Source of the DNA: Spirochaetia bacterium
GTDB lineage: Bacteria; Spirochaetota; Spirochaetia; CADAEX01
Reading direction: 5' to 3'
Assembly: GCA_963662795.1 (NCBI GenBank)
Contig: OY759746.1
Span: 1,792,001-1,856,000 of the forward strand
Length of the DNA stretch: 64,000 bases
The notes beneath the pieces were generated by a model, which searched no databases, was not told where the DNA came from, and saw only the letters and a list, made by a program, of their open reading frames with translations. Below are positions 50,988 through 64,000 of this stretch, piece by piece; positions within the stretch are counted from its first letter, which is position 1; every line of letters starts with the position of its first letter. Position numbers and translations under genes: made by a program.

Positions 50988-52658
50988 ATGCTTGAAATAA
51001 CATTAAGCGCACTTTTGCGTGAAAAGACCAAAGCAGATCCTGACCGTGAGTTTATGGTTTATTCAGACAGGAACCTCCGCTTCACATACGGGGAATTTGA
51101 CAAAAGGGTAAGCGACCTGGCAAAAGGGCTTCTTTCGATAGGGATAAAAAAGGGGGACAACCTCGGCATCTGGGCCACAAATGTTCCGGACTGGCTCACA
51201 TTCCTGTTCGCGTCCGCGAGAATCGGCGCCGTGCTTGTTACAGTCAATACCAACTATAAGCTCCATGAGCTTGAGTATCTTGTAAGGCAGGCTGACCTTA
51301 CTACCCTATGCATTTCAGACGGTTTTAAGGACAGCGACTATGTCGCGATGGTAAATGAGCTGATCCCTGAACTCAAGGATTGCCAGAGGGGATACCTTAA
51401 GAGCGGCCGGTTCCCGTATCTTAAAAACCTTATCTTCATGGGACCGCAGAAGCACAGGGGGTTGTTTTCTATTCCCGAGCTGATACTCCTCGGTTCCCAC
51501 CTTGATGAAGGGGAACTTGAGGAAGCGGAAAAAAACATGCACTTTGATGAAACCATCAACATGCAGTACACATCAGGCACAACCGGTTTTCCGAAAGGGG
51601 TTATGCTTTCTCACTACAATATAATCAACAACGGCTATTACATAGGCGAGTGCCAGAAATTTACAGCTGAAGACAGACTGTGCCTTCCTGTTCCGCTTTT
51701 TCACTGCTTCGGAATAGTCCTCGGCGTACTGGCTGCCCTTTCCCACGGCAGCACAGTTGTTCTGCTTGAAAGCTTTGACCCTCTTGTCGTTCTTGCCTCT
51801 GTCCAGAGGGAAAAATGTACTGCGCTTTACGGTGTACCAACCATGTTTATAGCAGAACTCAACCATCCGATGTTTGATATGTTCAATCTTGAAAGCCTTC
51901 GTACCGGAATAATGGCAGGGTCTCCCTGTCCCATGGATGTAATGAAAAAAGTTATCGAAAAGATGCATATGAGCGAGGTTACAATCGCGTACGGGCTTAC
52001 AGAGGCTTCCCCTGTAATGACCCAGACAAAAACCGATGATCCGATAGAGAAAAAAGTAGGCACAGTAGGAAGAGAACTTGAGAATATTGAGGTCAAGGTT
52101 GCAGATCCTGAAACCGGGAAAGAATGTCCTGTCGATGTTCAGGGAGAGCTCTGCTGCAGGGGATACAATGTAATGAAAGGGTATTACAAAATGCCTGAAG
52201 AAACTGCAAGAGTCATAGATCCTGACGGCTGGCTCCATTCAGGCGATCTTGGGGTAAAAGACAGCGACGACTTTTTCAGCGTAACAGGGCGTATCAAGGA
52301 CATGATAATCCGCGGAGGAGAGAACATCTATCCGAAGGAGATCGAGGAATACCTCTACAACATGGAAGGGATAAAAGATGTCCAGGTCGCAGGTATCACC
52401 GATATGAAATACGGCGAGGTACCCGGAGCTTTTGTTATTCTGAAAGAAGGCTCGTCCCTTAAGGAAGAGGATATAATCGATTTCTGCAGGGGCCAGATAT
52501 CGCGCTTTAAGATACCGCAGTATGTGTTTTTTGTTGACTCGTACCCCATGACAGGCAGCGGCAAGATCCAGAAGTACAGGCTGCGAGAAATGGGCGATGA
52601 GCTTGTCAAAAGCAGGACTTCACAGACCAAGAGCTTTACCCTGTCAAATAAGAATTGA
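50988..52658 (+). CDS. AMP-dependent acyl-CoA synthetase
   Basis: [45 protein letters not shown]. Confidence 0.93.
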
Positions 52659-52661
52659 GAT

Positions 52662-52703
52662 AAAACCGCATCTGCCCTTAAGCCGGGTAATGCGGTTTTT
52701 TTT
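52662..52703 (+). terminator. Intrinsic terminator
   Basis: AAAACCGCAT...ATGCGGTTTTTTTT hairpin. Confidence 0.7.
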
Positions 52704-53125
52704 AACCTGCAAAGGTGCCAAAAAAAAACAACCTCAGATCCTTCAAGACAAAATTAGACAGTATTCAGGCAATCATAAATCCGTATAAAATTCAGCATAT
52801 CCGCTTCTTTTACAGGATGAGTTCAAATGTTGGAGCTGAAGAGCTCAAATCAGACACAGTAATTCTCATAAAGATATCCCTGAGCTGTATTTTAAACGCT
52901 TAACCGGCTCCTTTTCACGGAATAAGTTTCTTTTTAAAGATACAATGATGATATTTTTATCATTAAAACACATTTATTATGCTGTTTTTGGCAATTTTAC
53001 TTGCCAAAATTGACAATCACCCCTTATGATGTAATATATTACCAAAAAGTTTTTCATTTAAAAATGTTTTTTGAATGAAAAAAGTATTTGTATAAATACT
53101 TAACAGAGGAAACAAAGGAGTAAAA

Positions 53126-54496
53126 ATGGAAGCGTTAAGTAAATTCGTTTCAATCATCGGTTCATTTGCCTGGGGGCCGATTATGATCGTCCTGTTGTTC
53201 ATGACTGGTCTTATCCTGTCTGTCGGGACTAAAATTGTCCAGTACCGAAAGCTGGGATATGCATTCAAACTGCTGTTTACCAAAGATGCCGATGCAGAAG
53301 GGGACATAAGCCCGTTTGCTGCACTGATGACAGCATTGGCCGCCACAATCGGAACAGGTAATATTGCCGGCGTTGCGACTGCAATTGCAGTAGGCGGACC
53401 AGGAGCTGTTTTCTGGATGTGGGTAACCGCAATACTCGGCGGAGCTACTAAATTCTCTGAAGCAGTACTGGCAGTCAAATACCGTGTAACTGATGAAAAG
53501 GGTGAAAAATCAGGCGGCCCGATGTATTACGCAAGCAAGGGTATGGAAGAAAAATTCGGCGGCAACTGGAAATGGCTTGGATTCCTTTTTGCGCTGTTTG
53601 CCTTCCTGGCTTCATTCGGTATCGGAAACATGGTACAGTCCAATTCGGTCGCAGCATCTCTTCAGCAGTCAATTGGACTGGCTCCATACATATCTGGTAT
53701 AGTTATCGCTATTGCAACCGGACTTGTAATTATCGGAGGAATCAAGAGCATAGGAAAAACAGCTGAAAAGATTGTTCCAATTATGGCTATTATTTATGTA
53801 CTTGGCTCACTCTGGGTAATTTTCGCAAACATTACATTCCTTCCGAGAGCATTCGGATGGATCTTCGGAAATGCATTTAACGCAAAAGCTGTAGGCGGCG
53901 GGTTCCTTGGAACTGTAGTCCGCATGGGTGTTGCAAGAGGTATTTTTTCTAATGAAGCCGGTCTTGGAAGCGCTCCTATCGCTCATGCCGCTTCAAAGAC
54001 AAGCGATCCGATCCGCCAGGGTATAATTGCCTCCCTCGGATCATTCCTTGATACAATAGTAGTCTGCAGCATGACAGCTCTTGTAATTTTAATCTCACCG
54101 ATAGTAAATATCGGAGCTGACGGTTTGATGGTAGTCAAGGACGGCCTTAACGGCGCGGCCCTTACCACAGCTGCCTACAGCGCAAGCCTTCCTGTAGTTG
54201 GACAGTACATCGTAAGTTTCGGTCTGATATTCTTTGCATACTCAACAATACTCGGCTGGTACTATTATGGTTACAAATCATTTGAATACCTTGTAGGCGT
54301 AAAAATCGCCTCATTCTACAAATGGGTATGGGTAGCGCTTGTTTATATCGGTGCGGTAATTCCACTCAGTTTTGTATGGGATTTTTCAGACGCATTCAAT
54401 GGACTGATGGCTATCCCCAACCTTGTCGCTCTTATCGGTTTGAGCTCGGTTGTATTCGGCATGCTGAAAGAATATGAAGTGAAAATGAAAAAATAG
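53126..54496 (+). CDS. Alanine/glycine:cation symporter (AGCS family)
   Basis: IGTGNIAGVA, GGPGAVFWMW, GGPMYY, RGIFSNEAGLGS, DTIVVC. Confidence 0.95.
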   Translation: MEALSKFVSIIGSFAWGPIMIVLLFMTGLILSVGTKIVQYRKLGYAFKLLFTKDADAEGDISPFAALMTALAATIGTGNIAGVATAIAVGGPGAVFWMWVTAILGGATKFSEAVLAVKYRVTDEKGEKSGGPMYYASKGMEEKFGGNWKWLGFLFALFAFLASFGIGNMVQSNSVAASLQQSIGLAPYISGIVIAIATGLVIIGGIKSIGKTAEKIVPIMAIIYVLGSLWVIFANITFLPRAFGWIFGNAFNAKAVGGGFLGTVVRMGVARGIFSNEAGLGSAPIAHAASKTSDPIRQGIIASLGSFLDTIVVCSMTALVILISPIVNIGADGLMVVKDGLNGAALTTAAYSASLPVVGQYIVSFGLIFFAYSTILGWYYYGYKSFEYLVGVKIASFYKWVWVALVYIGAVIPLSFVWDFSDAFNGLMAIPNLVALIGLSSVVFGMLKEYEVKMKK

Positions 54497-54520
54497 GGTT
54501 AAGACTTTAATCCTTAACAG

Positions 54521-54570
54521 AAGGAGACAGGCAGAATTCCTTAATACAGGAAAGATCCTGTCTCCTTTTT
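54521..54570 (+). terminator. Intrinsic terminator
   Basis: AAGGAGACAGG...CCTGTCTCCTTTTT. Confidence 0.65.
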
Positions 54571-54781
54571 ATTATCATTACTTTTAGGGCAGTAACGCAT
54601 GCTGCCGGGAAATAAAAATAAAAAATAATGCTAAAAATAAAAACCGGTGTATAATTACCTATTAATCATAATCGGCAGAGTATGTTTCGGCTGCCTGCGG
54701 ATATAGTATTTTTACTTAACCACATTGCCTGTTTAAACCTGAAATGAAGCAGTAATGCAGAAAGGGATGTAATATCCTGTT

Positions 54782-55801
54782 GTGGCAGGAATTATATCAG
54801 ACGGAAAAGATATAAAAGTACGCATTCCCTATTCAAGAGAAGCTGTATTAAAACTTCATCAAATTGGCGGAGGCAGATGGAATCCGGAAGAAAAAGTATG
54901 GATTTTCAGCTACAGCAGGGAAAAAGATGCTTTAATCAGGAAGAATATCGGCCCGATATCCTTTTTACCGGATATTGAAACAGAGATTGTAAAACTGAAA
55001 AAAGAACTTGCCTTGAGGGGATACAGCCCTAAAACAGAAAAAGCCTATATAAGTCATGTTGAAAAGCTGCTTAAATTCTGCCGCTCAGAATGGCTCACAC
55101 CAAACCATAAAACCACAGATAAATTTCTATTGGAATTATGTTCAGGCCTAAAGTTGTCCGGCAGTTTCATGAATCAGTTTACATCATCGATAAAATTTTA
55201 TTTCAATAATTGTCTCGGCCGTCCTGATGAAGCAATGCTTCTTCACCGGTATAAAATCGGAAAAAAACTTCCCCCTGTTTTAAGCAAAACTGAGGTTGCG
55301 CTGCTTCTTGATTCTGTAATAAACCTTAAACATAAAACTATTCTGTCGGTAATCTATTCTTCAGGTCTTAGAATAAGTGAAGTGATAAATCTGAAACCGG
55401 GAGATATTGATTTTGATACAATGAATATTCATGTCAGGCAGGGAAAAGGAAGAAAAGACCGCATAACAGTTCTTTCAAGAAAGGCCGCCCAACTGATTTC
55501 ATTGTACAGAGAAGAATATCTTCCTTCTGTCTGGCTGTTCCCCGGACAGATCCAGAGCAGGCACATAAGTGTAAGAAGCGTTGAGGCTGTTTTTGGACGG
55601 GCATTGCTCAAATCCGGAATTGAAAAAGCTGCAACCGTACATACCCTAAGGCATTCTTTTGCAACCCATTTGCTGGAAGGCGGAACAGATATCCGCTATA
55701 TTCAGCAACTCCTCGGGCATAAAAACCTTAGCACAACCCAGATATATACTCATGTATCAAGCTGGAAACTGAAAAATATAGTCAGCCCGCTTGATTGCTG
55801 A
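54782..55801 (+). CDS. Integron-like tyrosine recombinase (SAM-like N-domain; lacks IntI I2 insertion)
   Basis: LRGYSPKTEKAY (SAM_4-like), SGLRISE, GKGRKDR, HTLRHSFATHLLE, LLGH, TTQIYTH; complete catalytic set; sits directly upstream of the cassette array. Confidence 0.9.
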   Translation: MAGIISDGKDIKVRIPYSREAVLKLHQIGGGRWNPEEKVWIFSYSREKDALIRKNIGPISFLPDIETEIVKLKKELALRGYSPKTEKAYISHVEKLLKFCRSEWLTPNHKTTDKFLLELCSGLKLSGSFMNQFTSSIKFYFNNCLGRPDEAMLLHRYKIGKKLPPVLSKTEVALLLDSVINLKHKTILSVIYSSGLRISEVINLKPGDIDFDTMNIHVRQGKGRKDRITVLSRKAAQLISLYREEYLPSVWLFPGQIQSRHISVRSVEAVFGRALLKSGIEKAATVHTLRHSFATHLLEGGTDIRYIQQLLGHKNLSTTQIYTHVSSWKLKNIVSPLDC

Positions 55802-55878
55802 AGCTGAATTCTACGCATAACTGCAGATAAAATTAAATAAATAATTATATCTGCAGTTGTTCATCTATAGTCTTTGAA

Positions 55879-55906
55879 TTGATGTATTACGTATGTATGA
55901 TACAAT
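55879..55906 (+). promoter_or_regulatory. Candidate cassette promoter (Pc-like)
   Basis: TTGATG-16 bp-TACAAT with an extended TG, about 45 bp upstream of the first GTT crossover. Confidence 0.4.
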
Positions 55907-55931
55907 CTAGGCTAAGCTAAAGCAAAGAATC

Positions 55932-55957
55932 ACAACTGCAACTACTAGGAGTTATAC
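55932..55957 (+). other. attI-like primary recombination site
   Basis: GCAACT-ACTAGG-AGTTATAC. GTTATAC (55951) is the exact complement of GTATAAC (56868) that closes cassette 1. No attC hairpin precedes it. Confidence 0.7.
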
Positions 55958-56110
55958 GAAAAACCGCGCCAAGAGGCTACAATTTCGCCCCGGGGAAACG
56001 GGAAAAGCCAGGCGTCCTGCCTGGCTTAAGAAAGAAATAACAGAAAATGGTAATAATTTTTAAAAGTGTGAATTTTGTAGTTTTGGAATAGCTTCAGTTC
56101 TTGAATAGAT

Positions 56111-56139
56111 TTGACTTACACAGCAATATGTGTTAAAAT
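56111..56139 (+). promoter_or_regulatory. vapBC sigma70-type promoter with palindromic operator
   Basis: TTGACT-17 bp-TAAAAT; ACACA...TGTGT inverted repeat in the spacer. Confidence 0.65.
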
Positions 56140-56166
56140 GTACACAAAAGGATTGAGGAGAAAAAT

Positions 56167-56367
56167 ATGGCTACAAACCTTGCAATTGATGATAAATTAT
56201 TAATACTTGCCCAGGGTATTGCTGGAATAAAGACAAAGAAGGATACAGTAAACCTTGCGCTTAAAGAGTTTATTCAGAGAAGAAAACAGGAAGAAATTAT
56301 AGATATTTTTGGCAAAATAGAGTTTGCAGAAGATTATGACTATAAACAAATGAGAAATAGAAAATGA
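56167..56367 (+). CDS. vapB: VapB-family antitoxin (cassette 1)
   Basis: MATNLAIDDKLL...TKKDTVNLALKEFI pattern; overlaps the toxin start. Confidence 0.88.
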   Translation: MATNLAIDDKLLILAQGIAGIKTKKDTVNLALKEFIQRRKQEEIIDIFGKIEFAEDYDYKQMRNRK

Positions 56368-56789
56368 AAATACTTGTAGATACTTCTGTCTGGTCATTGG
56401 CATTAAGGAAGAAAACACTCACAAAGGAAGAGGATAAAATTGTAAGAGAATTAAAGGAATTAATTTATGAACTTAGGGTCATGATAATGGGGCCTATAAG
56501 GCAGGAATTATTATCCGGCTTATCAGATGATGAAAAGTTTAAGATATTAAAGGAAAAATTAAAATCATTTGAAGATATAGAATTGAATCAGGAAGATTAT
56601 GAGAAAGCAGCTGAGATATCGAATAGTTGTAGAAAGAAAGGAATCCAAGGATCACATATAGATTTTTTAATATCAGCAGCAGCATTGAATAGAAATATAA
56701 GTATTTTTACAACAGATAAAGATTTTGAAAATTATAAAAAAATATTAAGTTTGAAATTGCATAAAGTAAGAGAAGAAATAAACAAGTAA
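56364..56789 (+). CDS. vapC: VapC PIN-domain toxin (cassette 1)
   Basis: LVDTSVW, QELLSG, DFLI, FTTDKDF acidic PIN residues. Confidence 0.9.
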   Translation: MKILVDTSVWSLALRKKTLTKEEDKIVRELKELIYELRVMIMGPIRQELLSGLSDDEKFKILKEKLKSFEDIELNQEDYEKAAEISNSCRKKGIQGSHIDFLISAAALNRNISIFTTDKDFENYKKILSLKLHKVREEINK

Positions 56790-56867
56790 AAGGAAAAGAC
56801 CCGCTTTCGTACGTCCTGTACGAAAGCGAAGAGGGGCGAAATTAAGAAAAAGAAGGCGCGGTTCATC

Positions 56868-57050
56868 GTATAACAGCGGATGTTCGGTTTCGGCTGGCGG
56901 GGAGTAAATTATCAAGAAACCCAGCCTTCACCCAAATTGCCTGTCCTATAACCATTTTGATAATTTAAAATATTACGGAAGAGTTTAATCAATAGCTGTA
57001 TAATGCAATTGAATAATCAGGCAACTTCGATCATCCGCGGGACGTTATTT
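56868..57050 (+). other. attC-like site 1 (183 bp)
   Basis: GTATAAC-A-GCGGATG...CATCCGC-GGGAC-GTTATTT. Confidence 0.8.
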
Positions 57051-57305
57051 GCAATACCGCAGATTAGTGATTATGAATTATCTAATTTAGTTCGTGTTTG
57101 TTCAAACATTCCGTGCCCAAGAGGAGCCCGGCGTCCTGCCGGGCTTAAGAAGAATTATAAAATCTTAAACTTACAATAATAAATAGGGAAAATGCTTTTA
57201 GATATTTATTGTAAACTTTTCCAGCAATGTAATAATTATAAAATGAATAATAAAAAGATTGGATCTGGTGTTAAATATTAATAAGAATAAAGGGTAGGTA
57301 ATTTT

Positions 57306-57665
57306 ATGGATAAGTATTTTGAAAGTAAAATAAACAGTAGTATAACAGATCGAAAAAAACTTCATGAAAGATTTGTAAAAGGTTGTAAAACCTATAAAAG
57401 CTTTCTAGAGCTTGAGGAAAGAGCATTTTCTGATAGTGCTTTATCAAGAAAAGTAAAAGAATTAATGGCATTATCAATATCAATAGTAACCAAGTGTGAA
57501 CCTTGCATAGAATGGCATGTGCAACAAGCTTTACTTCAAGGAGCTACAGATGAAGAAATATATGAAACAATAGATGTTTCAATAGAAATGGGAGGAGGAC
57601 CAGCAGGAGCATATGCAAGGTATGCGCTTAATGCAATGGATTATCATAGAGCAAATAAAAGATAA
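57306..57665 (+). CDS. Carboxymuconolactone decarboxylase / AhpD-like protein (cassette 2)
   Basis: ALSRKVKELMALSISIVTKCEPCIEWH (CxxC), GAT.EEI.E, MGGGP. Confidence 0.9.
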   Translation: MDKYFESKINSSITDRKKLHERFVKGCKTYKSFLELEERAFSDSALSRKVKELMALSISIVTKCEPCIEWHVQQALLQGATDEEIYETIDVSIEMGGGPAGAYARYALNAMDYHRANKR

Positions 57666-57946
57666 AAAATGAAATATTGAGATAAACCATTAAAGAATTA
57701 AGCTCCACGATGAAGGAGAGACGATATATTTACAAAAAAAATAAAGCTGTAAGTAGAAAAGTAGTAAATATATGAATATAGGATGAAAATAAAAAGTAAA
57801 TTATTGACTTAAAATAGATAAGAGTGTTATTTGGTACTGCCATGTAAAAAGTATGGGGAGCGCCCCGTTTTCGCCGTCCTGGCTCAAACGGGAAGAAGGG
57901 CACGGGAGGAGGAAGGAAAAGAGGGAATAAATAATTGCGGTACTGC

Positions 57947-58138
57947 AAATAACAGCGATTATTTCGCTGCGCTCCCTGTGGTCGCTTGGGCTCCTGCCAG
58001 TTGAGCTGGCAGATCGCCATATTTTGTTTTCATAAAACCGGAACAACATGTGTTTTATGCTCTTCAAGTTTGTAAAAACTAAATAAAAATATTTTAGAGT
58101 TTAGCCACAAAACATCGAATAATCGCGAGACGTTATCC
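57947..58138 (+). other. attC-like site 2 (192 bp)
   Basis: AAATAAC-A-GCGATTATTTCG...CGAATAATCGC-GAGAC-GTTATCC. Confidence 0.82.
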
Positions 58139-58233
58139 ACAATGCCCCCACAAGATGCAATCGCCCGGACCTCCGGCCGACGGGCGAGGATATGTTGTAC
58201 TAGGTAAGATTTTATTCACTAAAAGGAGTAAAA

Positions 58234-59025
58234 ATGCTATTACCAAATATTGATGAATTAAGAAATCAAAATACGATTTGGCACTATACAAAAGTTGATT
58301 ATGCAATAAAATACATATTGTATGAACTGAAATTACGTCTTTCGCCCGTGGCAAAAAGTATTGATCCAATAGAAAATAGTGGACATGGTATTAATTATTC
58401 TAATTTCAACAAACAAGAAGAAATATCAGATTTTGCCCGTGAATTACGTAATAAATATATTAAACAGTCTCAAAATGTTAAGCAACTATCATTTTGCATG
58501 AATGAATATGCTGATAATAAAATGCATAAAATTGATAAATATGGTTTTATAAAACCTAGAATGTGGGATCAATATGGTGATCATTATAAAGGGGTTTGTT
58601 TTGGTTTTGATAAAAAAAAATTAAAAATCAATGAGGAAAAACAAGTTGCAGGAAAAGTTGTATATTACACATATGATGAATTTATTGGAATTGAGCATTT
58701 TTCAATAAATGCACAAATAACACCAGATATTAATATTTCAGAACCAGAATATATTCAGAATCTTAGTAAGAAATTTAATCAATTATTTTTTAAAAAGCAT
58801 ATTGATTATATTGGTGAAAATGAATACCGAATTATATCGTTTAGCGAAACTGATTTTGATTATATAGATATCGAAAAATCAATTAATTGTATTATAATTT
58901 CAGGTTTTGTAGAATCAAACTATGATTATAGGGTATTAAGAAAGTATGCAAAAAAATTAAACATACCACTTATTCAAATATTATGGATCGGAACAAGTAT
59001 TGATATACAAAGAATAGAAAAATAA
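58234..59025 (+). CDS. DUF2971-like protein (cassette 3)
   Basis: WHYT, DPIE, MWDQYGDHYKGVCFGFD, K...Y..ENEYRII. Confidence 0.75.
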   Translation: MLLPNIDELRNQNTIWHYTKVDYAIKYILYELKLRLSPVAKSIDPIENSGHGINYSNFNKQEEISDFARELRNKYIKQSQNVKQLSFCMNEYADNKMHKIDKYGFIKPRMWDQYGDHYKGVCFGFDKKKLKINEEKQVAGKVVYYTYDEFIGIEHFSINAQITPDINISEPEYIQNLSKKFNQLFFKKHIDYIGENEYRIISFSETDFDYIDIEKSINCIIISGFVESNYDYRVLRKYAKKLNIPLIQILWIGTSIDIQRIEK

Positions 59026-59135
59026 TATTAAAAACAAAGAAATCTAATTTATGCAAGGATAATAATTGCCTGACAGTAAATAAAGTCCAGCCTTGGCTCC
59101 GCCGTGCGGCTTGGACAAGAAGTGGGGGCACTGGT

Positions 59136-59306
59136 GGATAACAGAGGATAATTCGCTGCGCTCGGAGTACCTCGCTTGGCCTGCGGCATATTTTGCTAGC
59201 ATTAAAGCAGTTCATATTCTATTTTACCCTATTTAAATATATTTCCCAAGACTATTACGTTGAAAATGGTTTTAGCAAAACATCGCTTATCCGCGGGACG
59301 TTATCC
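59136..59306 (+). other. attC-like site 3 (171 bp)
   Basis: GGATAAC-A-GAGGATAA...TTATCCGC-GGGAC-GTTATCC. Confidence 0.8.
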
Positions 59307-59424
59307 ACAATGCCCCCACAAGATGCAATCGCCCGGACCTCCGGCCGACGGGCGAGGATATGCAGTAGGAGTAATATACAGTATAATAGTATATGTTAGA
59401 AGAACCATTCGGGCAGAGGAAGAA

Positions 59425-59982
59425 ATGAAAAGAGAACAATTTTTTATATTGATTTTGTCAATATTACTTATTTCCTGCACAAAGATGGAAAACGATGTAA
59501 TTCTATTAGTTCCATATAGTCAACAAGAAAAATTAATTAACTATTTTACTAAAGCCAGTATTAAAGTAAAAATTGATAATTCTTTGATGACAATTTCTTC
59601 TCCTACTGATAATGTATTATTAAACCTTCTTGATTTTCTATTTACCAATATATATTTGAATAAAAGTAATTTAAATAATTCAACTACCACAAGAACTCAA
59701 GATGGATCATATTATAAAAGAAAATATCTTGAAATACTTCCTAATTTAAAATACATAATAAGGGATGATTTGAGTAGTCCAAAGGCAGTATATGACCCAA
59801 CACATCCTGATGCAATTAAAGAAGGTAAAGACAAAGGATATGTATATTATCCAAATATAATTATAGATGATGAGGAAAATGATCTTATCAATAATGTATT
59901 TTTATATAATTCAATTCTTGAATACTTAAAAAGTAGAAACATACCAGTTATGTCTATAGAAATTGATCCAAATAATATATGA
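59425..59982 (+). CDS. Lipoprotein with FlgC-like (flagellar rod) domain (cassette 4)
   Basis: Start MKREQFF with lipobox LLISC; SNLNNSTTTRTQDGSYYKRK and VYDPTHPDAI..G...GYVYYPNI match FlgC motifs. The upstream extension in the ORF track reads through repeat DNA. Confidence 0.75.
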   Translation: MKREQFFILILSILLISCTKMENDVILLVPYSQQEKLINYFTKASIKVKIDNSLMTISSPTDNVLLNLLDFLFTNIYLNKSNLNNSTTTRTQDGSYYKRKYLEILPNLKYIIRDDLSSPKAVYDPTHPDAIKEGKDKGYVYYPNIIIDDEENDLINNVFLYNSILEYLKSRNIPVMSIEIDPNNI

Positions 59983-60041
59983 TGAGTATCATAAATATTT
60001 CTGAAATTGATAGAAATTAATGTTTTTTAAATACAAAAAGA

Positions 60042-60161
60042 CTTCTAACTACTTTTACCTGATGTTTTCTTTGTTACATTTTGTACTGTCGCTTCGCTTC
60101 TGACGCACAAAATGCGCCAAGCCCTTCGGGCACGAAAATACAGATTAAGCAAATGTAAAAT
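60042..60161 (+). other. Degenerate classical-type attC nested within cassette 4
   Basis: CTTCTAAC-tactt-TTACCTG...CAGATTAA-gcaaat-GTA. CTTCTAAC is the exact complement of GTTAGAAG at 59395, upstream of the gene. Confidence 0.6.
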
Positions 60162-60247
60162 TCCAATTACTTAAACAAGGAAATAAGGGAAGAAGTCCGG
60201 CCTTGGCTTCCAGCCGTGCGGCCCGGACAAGAAGTGGGGGCACTGGT

Positions 60248-60439
60248 GGATAACAGCGATTATTTCGCTGCGCTCCCTGTGGTCGCTTGGGCTCCTGCCA
60301 GTTGAGCTGGCAGATCGCCATATTTTGTTTTCATAAAACCGGAAGAACATGTGTTTTATGCTTTTCAGGTTTGAAAAAACCAAATAAAAGTATTTTAGAG
60401 TTTAGCCACAAAACATCGAATAATCGCGAGACGTTATCC
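60248..60439 (+). other. attC-like site 4 (192 bp), near-identical to site 2
   Basis: About 6 substitutions relative to 57950-58138 by manual comparison. Confidence 0.85.
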
Positions 60440-60531
60440 ACAATGCCCCCACAAGAAGACACCGCCCGGACCTCCGGCCGACGGGCGAAGAGAATTGAAT
60501 ACCAATTAAACTACTTAAAAAAGGTAAATAT

Positions 60532-61434
60532 ATGAATGGATTAAATGAAAAAAGTATTTTATTCAAACATTTAGAGGACAATTCTTTACATACGATAAAT
60601 GAATTATATCATTATACAACAATAGAAAATTTCTACAAAATTATTGAAACTAAAACATTTTATATTTTTAATTCTTATCAAATGAATGATTATAAAGAAA
60701 ACTATGTATTGATCGAAAAACTCAAGGAATATTTAAAAAATAGAAATGATATTCCAGAGGATTATCTGAATAAACTTGATGAAACCATAAAGATAAAGTT
60801 TAGATTGAATACACCATATGTGTTTTGTTTAACTGAATTAAATGATTCGTTATCACAATGGAGAGCTTATGGAAATGATGGAAAAGGAATTTGTTTTAAA
60901 ATAGACAGTAAAAAGTTACAAATGAAATATCGTCTGCCTTTTACAGGCGCAGAAAAAGATAATAATTTATCATTACACAATGTAATTTATAATAATGAAG
61001 AGATTAAAAATATCATTGAGAATATTATCAATCAAAGTATTGATTTTGCAAAAACTCGAGATGAAAATATTAGAAATATAGTCTTTGCTGAAACAGCATG
61101 TGCTTTAATGGTAAGATTTAACCCAGTAGTAAAATTAAATGAATTTAAAGAAGAGAAAGAATGGAGAATTATTTACAATCCGGTCTGTATAAAAACCGAC
61201 GGCATTCCATTTAATACTTTAGATAATAATAAAGATATTGGATTTTTAATAACAAATAATAATTTGAGATCTTATTTTAAAATATCATTTACAAGTGATG
61301 AATTTAAAGATATTATTTCTGCTATTTATATTGGTCCTAAAAGTAGAGTAGACGATTATGAAATGCGAATATTATTAGATATTAATGCATTAAAGAATAC
61401 AGAAATATATCGTTCAAATATTCCATATAGATAA
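60532..61434 (+). CDS. DUF2971-domain protein (cassette 5)
   Basis: LYHYT, MNDYKE, DSLSQWRAYGNDGKGIC, FKEEKEWRI, IYIGP, SNIPYR. Confidence 0.85.
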   Translation: MNGLNEKSILFKHLEDNSLHTINELYHYTTIENFYKIIETKTFYIFNSYQMNDYKENYVLIEKLKEYLKNRNDIPEDYLNKLDETIKIKFRLNTPYVFCLTELNDSLSQWRAYGNDGKGICFKIDSKKLQMKYRLPFTGAEKDNNLSLHNVIYNNEEIKNIIENIINQSIDFAKTRDENIRNIVFAETACALMVRFNPVVKLNEFKEEKEWRIIYNPVCIKTDGIPFNTLDNNKDIGFLITNNNLRSYFKISFTSDEFKDIISAIYIGPKSRVDDYEMRILLDINALKNTEIYRSNIPYR

Positions 61435-61526
61435 TTATTTGTATAGGTAGAATAATTAACTGACTGTTTATGAAGTCCGGCCTTGGCTTCCAGCCGTGCG
61501 GCCGGACAAGAAGTGGGGGCACTGGT

Positions 61527-61698
61527 GGATAACAGCGGTTCAAGCGCATCGCTCGGATTACCTCGCTTGGGCTTCGCCAAACATCGCAGGGTTTATGCTA
61601 CAACTTTTTGAAATAACGAGTTAGGAGTAATAAATAATACAGCTTTATGTTAAATAGTCTTGGTCTGCGATGCTTCGCTTAACCGCAGGACGTTATCC
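61527..61698 (+). other. attC-like site 5 (172 bp)
   Basis: GGATAAC-A-GCGGTT(C)AAGCG...CGCTTAACCGC-AGGAC-GTTATCC. Confidence 0.82.
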
Positions 61699-61836
61699 AC
61701 AATGCCCCCACAAGATGCGATCGCCCGGACCTCCGGCCGACGGGCGAAAATTAGTAAACGCAGTTTTATAATTGGAAATGGTAAGCACTTTTTCCCCAGT
61801 CATGGAAAGGAAAAGTACCCCACCTAGTGAAAAAAA

Positions 61837-62568
61837 TTAGCTCTCCTTTTTATTTGAAATTCTATATGAATCTCCCGCGAGGGAGAAAACATGTGCATGA
61901 TGCAGCAGTCTGTCCAGCAGCGCTGTTGTCATTACTTCGTCCCCAAGCATTTCCGCCCAGGAATCAAAACTTTTGTTAGATGTTATGATAATTGATGTGC
62001 GTTCATAAAGTTCACTCACCAGCGAAAAGAATAAATTGGCCTCTTTTCGGTCAATAGGTGTGTAGCCTATTTCATCGATGATCAAGACATCGGACTTCAT
62101 GATTCGATTGAGCCTGAATGTACTCGAGCGCTGAACATCCATTGTTTTCAGTAGCTTCACCAGTGATGTGATTCGCTCAAAGCAGACCTTATACCCTTTC
62201 TGAATTGCCTCATAACCAAGTGCAATAGAAAGATGAGTTTTCCCTATTCCCGGAGGTCCAAAGAAAAGAAGATTTTCCTGTTTATCTATCCAAGTGAAAT
62301 CGAGAAGATTTTTAAGCTGTAATTTGTTTATACCTTCCAGCCTATTTATATTAAAATCTTCAAGAAGTTTTATTACCGGAAAATGAGAGCCTGCAAGGTT
62401 GCGTCTCAGCCTGCGTTCCATCCGGTAGGAGATCTCTTTTTCCAGAAGAGTTTTAAGGAACTCAAGATGTGAAATTTCACTTTCAACATTCACTTCATTT
62501 AATGCTTTTGATATCCCCTGAAGTTTTAAGTTTTCCAGCACTCCGGTACAATAATCGAGCGTTTTCAT
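61837..62568 (-). CDS. istB: IS21 helper ATPase IstB
   Basis: GPPGIGKTHL, LIIDEIGY, IITSNK, LLDRLLHH, GDSYR. Confidence 0.95.
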   Translation of the reverse strand: MKTLDYCTGVLENLKLQGISKALNEVNVESEISHLEFLKTLLEKEISYRMERRLRRNLAGSHFPVIKLLEDFNINRLEGINKLQLKNLLDFTWIDKQENLLFFGPPGIGKTHLSIALGYEAIQKGYKVCFERITSLVKLLKTMDVQRSSTFRLNRIMKSDVLIIDEIGYTPIDRKEANLFFSLVSELYERTSIIITSNKSFDSWAEMLGDEVMTTALLDRLLHHAHVFSLAGDSYRISNKKES

Positions 62569-64000
62569 AAAGCTCCTCCGATTATGCTGACCAGCGAACT
62601 ATAATAACTAAGCTTCCTTTGAACAACTTTTGGATTTCTTAAATCTGCTTTAACAGCCTGAATTCCGGTTATTAGTTTAGGGAGAATATTATCATGTAAA
62701 TCTTCAGTAACACCTTTTACATATGCATACGCTTCTTCAAGATTCATGGCGCTGCATCCCCCTGTTTCTTCACACACGATAAGGGCCTTTGAAAGTAGCT
62801 CAACATCATAGCCGCCGGATAGAAATTTACTTAAACTTGAATGCTGTTCACGAAAATAACGGGTGTAACGCCGATAGTTTTTCTGAACAAATTCCTCCCA
62901 ACCGGGAGCTGTAACTTTTTCAAGTAACTCATCTCGAAGCTGTGTTTGTTTAACAGAATTATCTTTAAAATGATTCTTTTTCGATATTATCTGTCCAGGA
63001 AGTACTGAGCGTGCGTGATGAGCAATTTCTCTTCCAGCCAATTCATCATAAATGAATAATTCATTCTCTGATCTATAAATCCAGACGGTTTTACGCCGGT
63101 ATGAAATAGGCACTGAATATTTACAGGAATCTACACTTATGAAACTTTTTAGATCTACTTTACGATCTTCCCGCTCAAGAATGGAATCTCTTTTAAACAT
63201 TGAAGCCCGCAAGGGCTTGAGTTTCTCTTGTTCCTTTTTAAGCAGGTTTGCAGGAATTATTCCGGTTGCTTGAGATATTTTCCCGTTTGCTGTTCTCACT
63301 ATCCATGAAGAGAGCTTTGATTGAACATCTTCGAAATCATCAAAGGTTCTCGCTGAAAAAAAACTTGTCTTTACGAACTTAACGAGATTTTCTACCTTTC
63401 CCTTGGATTCCGGATCTGCTTTTCGACAGACATATAGCTCAAACTGCATTTCATCTTGAAATTGGCTAAATGATTTTGTGAGAATAATATCCCCGCTGTT
63501 TTCACTGACAATCAGGGTCCGGTCCTGATCAATTACTATCTGATGTGGTATGCCACCTATGTACTCAAAACAATCAAGAAGATGTAAAATTACATCCAAT
63601 GTTGTAAACGGACGTTGCTGTACTGCAACATATCGGTATCTGCTTGCAGAGAGCACTGATGCAAAGATATAGACGGTCTCTCCAGTGTTTATCTTTAGCT
63701 GGCCAAAATCAACCTGCAATTGTTTTCCAAACGGCAGTTCATCTACCGGAGTATAGGACCTATATAGCGGTGATGTAAGAATTCCACCTGTTCTTACCAG
63801 ATATGAAATATAATTTCTCAAAGTACGGGGTGTTCCCGGAAGATTCTCCTCCCCGTATTTTTCCTCCAGCAAATCATAGACTGAAGACGAATATACCTTG
63901 CTTTCATTCAGCCGGTAAATCTCAATGACTTCGTCTCTGAAGGGTTCGAAGACTTGTTCTTTTTTATGAGCGATTTTTTGATACTCAACATATTTTTCAG
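62565..64000 (-). CDS. istA: IS21 transposase IstA (5' end outside window)
   Basis: QLQVDFG, DQD, DPESKGKVEN, YSVP; the frame stays open from 63872 to the window edge; 4-bp overlap with istB. Confidence 0.93.
   Translation of the reverse strand, partial: EKYVEYQKIAHKKEQVFEPFRDEVIEIYRLNESKVYSSSVYDLLEEKYGEENLPGTPRTLRNYISYLVRTGGILTSPLYRSYTPVDELPFGKQLQVDFGQLKINTGETVYIFASVLSASRYRYVAVQQRPFTTLDVILHLLDCFEYIGGIPHQIVIDQDRTLIVSENSGDIILTKSFSQFQDEMQFELYVCRKADPESKGKVENLVKFVKTSFFSARTFDDFEDVQSKLSSWIVRTANGKISQATGIIPANLLKKEQEKLKPLRASMFKRDSILEREDRKVDLKSFISVDSCKYSVPISYRRKTVWIYRSENELFIYDELAGREIAHHARSVLPGQIISKKNHFKDNSVKQTQLRDELLEKVTAPGWEEFVQKNYRRYTRYFREQHSSLSKFLSGGYDVELLSKALIVCEETGGCSAMNLEEAYAYVKGVTEDLHDNILPKLITGIQAVKADLRNPKVVQRKLSYYSSLVSIIGGAL

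Follow-up and report, generated by a model that had tools for sequence, protein, structure and literature searches.

The window, that is, the whole stretch of 64,000 nucleotides analysed here (contig OY759746.1 of a Spirochaetia bacterium), carries a tyrosine recombinase gene, an attI-like region and the beginning of a cassette array. These features are listed in order below; R1 is a covariance model of the array's attC-like sites.

54782..55801, plus strand: tyrosine recombinase gene, 339 aa, composed of an HARP-like N-terminus, a SAM-like core-binding part and an I2-less catalytic domain
55802..55954, plus strand: attI-like region, ending GAG/GTTA, with GTT at 55951
55952..57044, plus strand: cassette 1, toxin-antitoxin pair of VapB (56167-56367) and VapC/PIN (56364-56789)
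56850..57068, plus strand: attC-like site 1, AAC end 56874, GTT start 57044, R1 111.9 bits
57045..58132, plus strand: cassette 2, CMD/AhpD-family protein (57306-57665)
57929..58156, plus strand: attC-like site 2, AAC end 57953, GTT start 58132, R1 168.7 bits
58133..59300, plus strand: cassette 3, DUF2971 protein (58234-59025, Pfam)
59117..59324, plus strand: attC-like site 3, AAC end 59142, GTT start 59300, matched by R1
59301..60433, plus strand: cassette 4, 185-aa ORF (59425-59982) with no Pfam family
60229..60457, plus strand: attC-like site 4, AAC end 60254, GTT start 60433, R1 173.1 bits
60434..61692, plus strand: cassette 5, DUF2971 protein (60532-61434, Pfam)
61508..61716, plus strand: attC-like site 5, AAC end 61533, GTT start 61692, R1 167.2 bits
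61693..61836, plus strand: start of cassette 6, with a B arm and the conserved GC hairpin module, broken by IS21
61837..64000, minus strand: IS21-family element in the array, with istB at 61837-62568 and istA from 62565 to the window end

The recombinase gene ends at 55801 and is followed by the attI-like GTTA at 55951 and then by the array, which is the adjacency expected of an integron. The attI-like region is kept in G014, a genome of the same genus, as far as GTTATACG. The arms flanking cassette 1, GTTATACGAAAAACCGCGCC and GGCGCGGTTCATCGTATAAC, are 90% complementary, and for site 3 a long hairpin is predicted for both strands (z -3.1 for the bottom and -4.5 for the top strand). R1 matches all five sites of the window at 112-176 bits. 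In cassette 4, a decayed attC of the canonical type was also recognized by eye at about 60040-60170. The sequence-only reading had described an integrase co-oriented with an attI-like GTT and with at least six cassettes lying between complementary AAC and GTT arms. This arrangement is indeed seen at 55951 and at five sites; as for the number, five cassettes are complete and the sixth is interrupted by the IS21-family element.

The extent given in that reading takes in no more than the first 2% of the array. Past the IS21-family element the array restarts with a site at C1:1857316 of the host genome (G000) and runs to C1:2,180,730. As a whole it measures about 332 kb, or 8.4% of the genome, and comprises about 196 sites in one orientation and about 195 cassettes. 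R1 gave 198 matches over the array, all on the plus strand (196 without two overlap duplicates), and no sites in the 20 kb that follow its end; in the whole-genome search the array held 147 of the 150 scored matches. A scan for a stem plus AAC/GTT found 187 sites on the plus strand and 6 on the minus strand of the array region, against 9 sites in either of two equally large control regions, so the attC-like sites are far above the number given by chance. The longest ORF is co-oriented with the array in 148 of 167 intervals.

The attC-like sites are imperfect inverted repeats with R''/R' and L''/L' boxes, in which structure is conserved over sequence. All 40 of the 40 sites aligned carry AAC and GTT without variation, and pairing holds in 91.5% of cells, versus 31.5-42.2% when the partner is slid. 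Compensatory changes occur in 9 of 15 pairs (in the L stem alone, 9 of 11), and the covariation score was matched by none of 500 shuffles. The unpaired spacer between R and L is asymmetric (1x5), the 5' arm contributing 1 nt and the 3' arm 5 nt. On its outer side, the R arm continues into a conserved bubble of 3-4 nt, in which ACTG faces CAAT, and a second 7-8 bp stem. The sites resemble those of classical integrons (IntI1, VchIntIA/IntI4) in being imperfect palindromes from AAC to GTT in which the R and L boxes pair and one base is bulged, but differ from them in the 1x5 spacer and in a length of 146-184 nt with long loops. They also differ from the treponeme-type attC, which is mostly 55-58 nt long with a symmetric 2x2 spacer (CTAAC AC CCGCTT C AACCTG ... 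CAGGTT AAGCGG TA GTTAG). The sequence-only reading had thought it likely that attC models would miss the platform. R2, a covariance model of these canonical treponeme-type sites, served as a proxy for such models; it matched none of the R1 sites, and R1 matched none of the canonical arrays. The sequence-only reading had proposed a different recognition chemistry for the platform; the site architecture does differ, and the chemistry may do so as well.

Since the sites are long, fall into few sequence families and have GC-rich hairpins alongside, one might take them for REP- or MITE-like intergenic elements or terminators that lie by chance beside a Xer-type gene. This is hardly credible: all sites have a single polarity, the L stem covaries across site families and genomes, and a search of the sites against Rfam matched no family. 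The cassette boundaries argue in the same direction. At 146 informative junctions, the arm after GTTA fits the AAC arm of the next site better in 119 and its own arm in 17, with 10 ties. Complementarity at +5 to +8 after GTTA is 0.86-0.89 with the next site and 0.46-0.71 with the own site, whereas pairing of the L' stem with the own site is 0.90-0.99; the switch of partner is thus placed between L' and +5 after GTT. The crossover would therefore fall at G/TT, as located to about 9 nt rather than to the exact phosphate, and classical integrons have their cassette boundary at G/TT too. The cassette-specific complementarity extends about 20 nt past GTT here, compared with about 7 in classical integrons. 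Cassettes duplicated at dispersed positions, with identity up to 99.9%, give the same boundary. Their identity begins at gac/GTTA in 6 of 6 pairs examined and ends just past the next GTTA in 3 of the 4 pairs for which the next site was printed; in the fourth it runs about 25 nt further, and the two following cassettes of that pair start alike. Cassettes are also shuffled between genera: G011 shares five with the host genome at 84-91% identity and in a different order.

These duplicates, with their exact GTTA edges, bear on a further explanation, namely that the array is a fossil: the integrase would have lost I2 together with its activity on folded attC, and the cassettes would have become fixed genes of the chromosome. 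IS elements have built up in the array, as a fossil might lead one to expect. However, among the sequencing runs found, all of which are stored as contigs, run X4 from another sample and study has a contig with 0 differences from the window over 54500-55954, and the match stops at the attI GTTA; in run X4, cassette 1 and most other cassette interiors have zero or trace depth. Judging from the contig and from depth, the X4 strain, whose integrase is identical, carries another cassette next to attI. The integrase gene itself is intact and is kept in G014 at 80% identity with no stops. For these and the phylogenetic reasons below, we regard the fossil explanation as very unlikely.

The 339-aa recombinase matches the Pfam families Phage_integrase and Phage_int_SAM_4. 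Its catalytic positions R197, K222, H287, R290, H313 and Y322 show little or no variation among 118 homologues. By sequence as well as by fold, the best match is the integron integrase 2a3v, which is also the top structural match of the AlphaFold model (mean pLDDT 88.7). Residues 72-234 of the query align to residues 9-172 of the chain and residues 259-337 to residues 239-317; from the gap between the two blocks, IntI4/VchIntIA has 66 residues where the query has 24. The spacing from GKGxKxR to HxLRH is 66 aa, versus 106-107 aa in canonical Spirochaetota IntI ORFs (n=20 with both motifs found). The IntI-specific additional domain (I2 helix, patch III region) is therefore lacking, as the sequence-only reading had stated. 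Its expectation that IntI models would miss the protein was borne out for NCBIfam TIGR02249 (integron integrase), which gives 200.1 bits in two stretches with a cut-off of 265. I2 is described as essential for classical IntI function in two papers (Smyshlyaev 2021, PMC8138268; Cury 2016, PMC4889954), and this speaks for a fossil array. NCBI names homologues 'site-specific tyrosine recombinase/integron integrase'.

XerC/XerD and archaeal XerA are alike to the window integrase in their core, which consists of a SAM-like and a catalytic domain without I2. A XerC/XerD resolvase was rejected (175.4 versus 335 for XerC, 173.2 versus 330 for XerD), and a separate Xer pair is encoded at 3.077 and 3.082 Mb of the genome. 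The top NCBIfam match was archaeal XerA (NF040815), which was likewise rejected, since 214.5 bits did not reach the curated cut-off of 220 and the host is a bacterium. Unlike Xer recombinases with their single dif, the window integrase is accompanied by an array of folded-palindrome attC-like sites.

The N-terminal 65 aa of the integrase (about 54782-54979) form an HARP-like domain, which the sequence-only reading had overlooked. Against PF07443, for which Pfam sets a gathering score of 25, the window protein itself reaches 12.2 bits (E 0.14), and 34 of 118 members of the integrase family match PF07443 at E <= 0.01. With a profile from 20 N-terminal segments, 4o66 was the sole match below 0.1 (E 3.8e-5); Foldseek also ranked 4o66 first, as a weak match (E 0.27, TM 0.48). 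The domain shares with the HARP domain of SMARCAL1 (PDB 4o66, PF07443) the order beta-beta-alpha-beta-beta-alpha, but is joined to a recombinase, not to an SNF2 ATPase. The HARP domain of SMARCAL1 binds fork or ss-ds junction DNA. In Bacteroidota homologues, one to three HARP-like copies stand in tandem. The profile also matches 12 of 29 canonical I2-bearing Spirochaetota IntI ORFs and did not find the domain in array-linked integrases of Ignavibacteriota and Patescibacteria, so the domain is not a simple substitute for I2.

The sequence-only reading had proposed a search for arrays beside homologues, and homologous integrases do adjoin arrays. I2-less integrases and the same site architecture occur together in five phyla: in other Spirochaetota, Gemmatimonadota, Ignavibacteriota, Bacteroidota and Patescibacteria. 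Sites of this architecture adjoin I2-less homologues in one MAG each of Gemmatimonadaceae (7-8 sites), Ignavibacteriota (10 sites) and Patescibacteria (2 sites), and in Flavobacterium aciduliphilum (2-3 sites). Clear arrays were found in 7 of 20 further Spirochaetota loci. Beside many homologues the scans detected no array, among them 5 of these 20 stretches and an entire proteobacterial clade (30 rows).

Alternatively, a canonical I2-bearing IntI may have built the array and may still recombine it, the I2-less recombinase being a bystander or an accessory, for example a Xer-like resolvase. The host genome has a degraded canonical intI at C1:412371-413302 and an intact one is encoded in each of G010, G011 and G012, so action of a canonical IntI in trans is historically possible. 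Furthermore, arrays persist in G010 and G012 beside I2-less genes that carry a stop codon, and R2 has eight matches within the host array. On the other hand, R1 gave 0 matches in 155,619 nt around the canonical IntIs of six other genomes. G011 is a natural control because both systems are present in one genome: its intact canonical IntI adjoins an array of short sites (TATAAC GCCCA GTTGAG...), in two loci of which R1 found 0 matches, and its I2-less integrase stands before an R1-type array in another part of the genome. R1-type sites are present in G014 (95% complete) and G019 (92% complete), in neither of which a canonical IntI was found. The pairing of I2-less integrases with class-II arrays recurs across the five phyla, each of 8 array loci checked has one recombinase ORF only, and the attI polymorphism lies directly 3' of the I2-less gene. 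We consider it unlikely that a canonical IntI is responsible for the array.

In a tree built with IntI sequences, whose backbone is unresolved and whose root depends on one long outgroup branch, the I2-bearing integrases are monophyletic (support 100*, 26 rows) and the query clade falls outside them. There is thus no sign of a recent loss of I2, which also argues against a fossil array. Array-linked homologues that are only 36-49% identical share the lack of I2. Treponeme-type 'inverted' integrons are likewise found in Spirochaetota and have an integrase co-oriented with the cassettes, and the HARP-like N-terminus found in part of the canonical Spirochaetota IntI ORFs is a further likeness; however, their integrases have the insertion (107 aa from GKG to HxLRH) and form a clade of their own (support 100*).

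The locus is a genuine integron-like platform whose integrase lacks I2, and it may be active in recombination. It is probably the head of a distinct type of sedentary chromosomal integron, with a recombinase that is an I2-less relative of IntI. Like classical integrons, it has a recombinase beside attI and co-oriented, mostly single-ORF cassettes, with toxin-antitoxin cassettes in a very large sedentary array. It differs from them in an integrase that lacks the additional domain, has an HARP-like N-terminus and is co-oriented with its cassettes, and in the 332-kb length of the array. Beside the observed anatomy, covariation, cassette boundaries and recurrent pairing of integrase type with site type, we infer that the I2-less integrase catalyses the cassette reaction. 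It would integrate and excise cassettes by crossover at the G/TT of attI at 55951 and of the attC-like sites, and folded single strands would be its substrate. The sites keep the classical logic (an R box with AAC/GTT, an L box that pairs, and one bulged base) in a changed geometry, and this geometry, possibly together with the HARP-like domain, may take over the role of I2.

We found no published description of such an I2-less integron platform, and our results point to a second kind of integron that has been overlooked. In Ghaly et al. 2022 (bioRxiv 10.1101/2022.02.06.479319), the additional domain is the defining character of integron integrases. It serves both as their definition and as the structural account of how folded attC is recognized. 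We lean slightly towards the broader view that I2-less IntI relatives, often with one to three HARP-like domains, make up a second integron lineage that is ancient and widespread, with members in Spirochaetota, Gemmatimonadota, Ignavibacteriota, Bacteroidota, Patescibacteria and perhaps other groups. Such a lineage would recombine its own class of attC, be invisible to methods based on intI_Cterm, and perhaps explain part of the CALINs and arrays larger than any Vibrio superintegron. If so, the origin of CALINs ('integrase-less' attC clusters) merits a second look. The 1x5 spacer, the ACTG/CAAT bubble and the HARP-like domain offer testable handles on what would be a second structural solution to the recognition of hairpin sites, directly comparable with VchIntIA. 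If an I2-less enzyme heads about 196 cassettes here and has relatives next to arrays in five phyla, integron surveys undercount integrons.

In the window, the gene at the head of the cassettes encodes an integrase of unusual form:

54782-55801, + strand: tyrosine recombinase of 339 aa with Phage_int_SAM_4 and Phage_integrase domains

The sequence-only reading had claimed that this protein is an integrase without the insertion (I2) of classical IntI, and this was borne out. All of its top NCBIfam matches were under their cut-offs: NF040815 (XerA/'integron integrase') gave 214.5 bits (cut-off 220), TIGR02249 (integron integrase) 200.1 bits split over two stretches (cut-off 265), XerC 175 bits (335) and XerD 173 bits (330). 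In the alignment to 2a3v, a solved integron integrase, residues 72-234 correspond to chain residues 9-172 and residues 259-337 to 239-317; between these two blocks IntI4 has 66 residues and the window integrase 24. The motifs GKGxKxR and HxLRH are 66 aa apart in the window integrase and 106-107 aa apart in canonical Spirochaetota IntI ORFs (the 20 with both motifs detected). In an alignment of 120 rows, this interval is 105-106 residues in 26 rows and 64-75 in the other 94. The absence of the I2 segment is therefore real. The AlphaFold model, for which 118 homologues were the input, is confident (mean pLDDT 88.7) and has 2a3v as its top PDB match. The catalytic positions show no or almost no variation over the 118 sequences. 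The additional domain is taken as defining by Ghaly et al. 2022 (bioRxiv 10.1101/2022.02.06.479319), and the window integrase fails this test of an IntI. According to Smyshlyaev et al. [quoted passage not shown]

The sites of the window array are a distinct structural class. Each unit runs from a cassette ORF through an arm with TAAC at its end, some 40-150 nt of loop and an arm of the form gac|GTTA to the next ORF. On an alignment of forty diverse sites from three genera, RNAalifold found an L stem of 8 bp with compensatory changes in 7 of its 8 pairs. When a fuller structure was specified (TAAC/GTTA R box, 8-bp L stem, one-base bulge and three more pairs), 91.5% of cells were paired, against 31.5-42.2% with the 3' partner slid by 1-3 columns; two-sided changes occurred in 9 of the 15 pairs, and none of 500 shuffles reached the observed covariation score. 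Whereas the attC sites of treponeme-like canonical IntI arrays are mostly 55-58 nt with a symmetric 2x2 spacer and a cassette-specific complementarity of just 7-8 nt, the R-L spacer here is asymmetric, a single nucleotide (A) on the 5' arm facing five (GxGAC) on the 3' arm, and the span from AAC to GTT is mostly 146, 162-165 or 183-184 nt. Outside TAAC/GTTA the arms also reach further than in canonical attC: about 5 variable paired bases come first, then a conserved bubble in which ACTG faces CAAT, and finally a variable 7-8-bp stem. At site 3, both strands are predicted to fold better than shuffles (z -3.1 and -4.5). No Rfam family was found in window positions 54000-64000 at E <= 1.

We built two covariance models, R1 for the class-II sites of the window array and R2 for canonical treponeme-type attC, the latter trained on 21 canonical sites. 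R1 had no match over 155,619 nt flanking canonical IntIs in six genomes. R2 recovered canonical arrays; in the array of the source genome (G000) it gave only 8 weak-to-moderate matches (best 48.7 bits), none of which overlapped an R1 site and all of which lay within the array, at most about 220 nt upstream of such a site. Class-II cassettes were seen to contain canonical treponeme-type attC sites or relics of them:

G000 contig C1, 1955198-1955335 (locus L019, 10198-10335): canonical treponeme-type attC or relic
Window, about 60040-60170 (by eye): canonical treponeme-type attC or relic

It looks as if cassettes with a canonical attC were re-equipped with a class-II site.

Several lines of evidence point to cassette movement by crossover at GTT. 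The arm 3' of GTTA is the better complement of the next site's AAC arm in 119 of 146 informative junctions, and of its own in 17, with 10 ties. Complementarity at +5 to +8 is 0.86-0.89 with the next site and 0.46-0.71 with the own site, and for the L' stem, pairing with the L'' of the same site is 0.90-0.99. This switch of partner at GTTA is the signature expected if the TT.. side of a cassette's own R' lies at the 5' end of that cassette, as in classical integrons, although the cassette-specific complementarity is about 20 nt here and about 7 nt there. The array contains 63 self-matches with a length of 450 nt or more and an identity of 90% or more. In all six duplicated-cassette pairs inspected, identity starts at gac|GTTA and the preceding loops are unrelated. 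In three of the four pairs with the next site printed, identity stops within a few bases past the next GTTA; the fourth shows about 25 nt more, since the two cassettes that follow open with the same arm. The source genome and G011, a genome of a different genus in the same family, have five cassettes in common (84-91% identical), whose order differs between them. Contigs of a sequencing run (X4) from another sample and study were also compared. A contig of 6336 nt has no difference from the window across 54500-55954 and loses the match at the attI GTTA; depth was zero or trace at cassette 1 and most other cassette interiors, and the cassette 2 ORF was partly covered. Contig 'joints' in this comparison were not used, as they are located in repeated attC sequence and have short sides (21-43 nt).

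The array continues past an IS21 element that interrupts cassette 6. A regular-expression scan followed by a stem scan of G000 contig C1 from 1.846 to 2.190 Mb found 187 sites on the + strand and 6 on the - strand, with a background of 9 sites in each of two control regions of equal size. R1 found 198 matches in the same region, all on the + strand (196 without two duplicates from overlapping loci), and none over the next 20 kb. The array thus measures about 332 kb, which is 8.4% of the 3.93-Mb single-contig genome. The longest ORF is co-oriented with the array in 148 of 167 intervals. In a whole-genome R1 search, 147 of the 150 scored matches were inside the array, and the three solitary sites outside it may be secondary-site cassettes. 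A GC-rich hairpin module (core CGCCCGGACCTCCGG) opens most cassettes just after the GTTA arm, with 153 copies genome-wide that all lie within the array; a second GC hairpin, with CCTTGGC, closes most cassettes before the AAC arm (140 of 173 sites). The GC-rich module has no Rfam match. The array has two further IS-like repeats (about 1.28-1.30 kb each), one in 5 copies and the other in 3 or more. It also contains two XerA-like recombinase genes, one with an open frame of 297 aa and one split, which share about 90% identity over about 1.06 kb. These features are as follows:

Window 61837-64000 and beyond: IS21-family element (istA, istB) in cassette 6
Window 58153-58185, 59321-59353, 60454-60486 and 61713-61745, and throughout the array: GC-rich hairpin module
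G000 contig C1, 451545-451750 (+), 2344535-2344743 (-) and 2489602-2489808 (-): solitary R1 sites far from the array, 124-148 bits
G000 contig C1, 2050776-2051576 (-) and 1881755-1882554 (-): XerA-like recombinase genes inside the array, opposite strand
Window 50988-54496: AMP-dependent synthetase gene and sodium:alanine symporter-like gene, upstream of the integrase

An AMP-binding enzyme gene was also seen upstream of the integrase in G019, a genome of the same family, in a translated fragment read by eye. This suggests a conserved chromosomal position of the integrase locus in the two genomes.

The check that the sequence-only reading called for, arrays beside homologous integrases, gave a positive answer: they were found in G019, in G011, in further Spirochaetota and in records outside the family. 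Among the 20 genomes of the GTDB family, homologues at E <= 1e-60 are present in G014 (80% identity), G019 (59%) and G011 (46%). Co-oriented arrays lie immediately downstream in G019 and G011; in G014 the contig stops 239 nt past the integrase gene, and six R1 matches are on another contig. G010 and G012 have an I2-less homologue with an in-frame stop and adjoining R1-type arrays in divergent layout, with 17 R1 matches between 3281505 and 3302327 in G012. R1 had no match in five family genomes without a close homologue; since the family genomes are kin, this co-occurrence is not an independent statistical test.

Three of the 20 family genomes (G010, G011, G012) and 29 of 301 sampled Spirochaetota genomes have a canonical IntI above the TIGR02249 cut-off. 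The source genome has only a degraded copy, near which no attC array was seen:

G000 contig C1, 412371-413302 (locus L007): degraded canonical intI, I2 region present, with stops or a frameshift and IS genes on either side

The decisive case is G011, where the canonical IntI adjoins an array of its own with another site form (TATAAC GCCCA GTTGAGCTG ... CTCCAACTGA TT GTTATAT), on which R1 had no match, and the I2-less integrase heads an R1-type array of more than 40 kb. A second R1-type cluster on the opposite strand lies about 75 kb from this main array, with no recombinase match reported nearby:

G011 contig C1, 3112490-3120827, + strand: second R1-type cluster

Outside the family, there are at least 80 related loci, of which 80 served as a sample. 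R1 is family-specific and gave only marginal matches in Gemmatimonadota (26 bits) and Flavobacterium (22 bits), so the arrays in these loci were found by repeat analysis instead. Among the loci listed, the same site architecture adjoins I2-less homologues in five records:

Gemmatimonadaceae MAG: 7-8 sites of the form CATAAC AAT GCGGTTTCCGG ... CCGGAAACC.. GTTAT
Ignavibacteriota MAG: 10 sites with cognate arms
Flavobacterium aciduliphilum DSM 25663: 2-3 sites
Spirochaetota MAG: 1 site, then the contig end
Patescibacteria MAG: 2 sites in divergent layout

The eight loci checked have one recombinase ORF each, from which the insertion is absent. On inspection, what looked like sites in three other loci (L035, L056 and L105) proved to be false positives. 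A homologue at E <= 1e-55 occurs in 80 of 400 sampled other Spirochaetota genomes. Judging by the locus ranges, the contig runs out no more than 800 nt past the gene in 15 of the 29 Spirochaetota loci among the matches listed, and begins no more than 1000 nt before it in 4, an excess that repeats downstream of the gene would cause. Among 20 downstream stretches from other Spirochaetota, 7 clearly have a co-oriented array with 4 or more sites and 8 have one or two plausible sites; in 5, one of which is just 1 kb, the script listing and inspection found no sites. A 'no array' result from the scripts is weak, because some degenerate sites within reach of R1 escaped the strict generic scans.

A quick LG+G4 tree was built from 120 rows, with nine short ones omitted. 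All 26 rows that bear I2 fall into a single clade (SH-aLRT 100). The window integrase lies outside this clade and clusters with those of G014, G019 and G011 and with metagenomic proteins (87-99). An I2-less clade from Patescibacteria is sister to the I2 clade (92, unstarred). The backbone is open and the root rests on one long Xer branch; the tree gives no support for I2 having been lost recently in the lineage of the window integrase and cannot order gain and loss of I2.

Residues 1-65 of the window integrase are predicted to fold as beta-beta-alpha-beta-beta-alpha. PF07443 (HARP) gave a sub-threshold match to this protein alone (E 0.14) and matched 34 of 118 relatives at E <= 0.01 (best 3.9e-6). 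A profile from 20 N-terminal segments matched the SMARCAL1 HARP structure 4o66 (E 3.8e-5), its sole match below 0.1; Foldseek with the N-terminal domain also ranked 4o66 at the top, yet weakly (E 0.27, TM 0.48). Bacteroidota homologues carry tandem HARP-like copies, three in L049 and L062 and two in L050, L052 and L053. A simple replacement of I2 by this domain was rejected, because the HARP-like profile matches 12 of 29 canonical Spirochaetota IntI ORFs, which bear I2, as well as 29 of 81 I2-less ORFs, some matched sequences being themselves in the profile. The HARP-like domain may help in recognising attI or the ss-ds junctions of folded sites.

In the literature outside subscription journals and supplements, we found no account of attC arrays headed by an integrase that lacks I2 or is fused to HARP; related I2-less proteins may be present in the supplementary trees of Cury 2016 (Figures S1, S5). 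We infer that the I2-less integrase catalyses recombination at these sites, and likewise the mechanism by which they would be recognised. The array that begins in the window is a real, very large integron-like platform.
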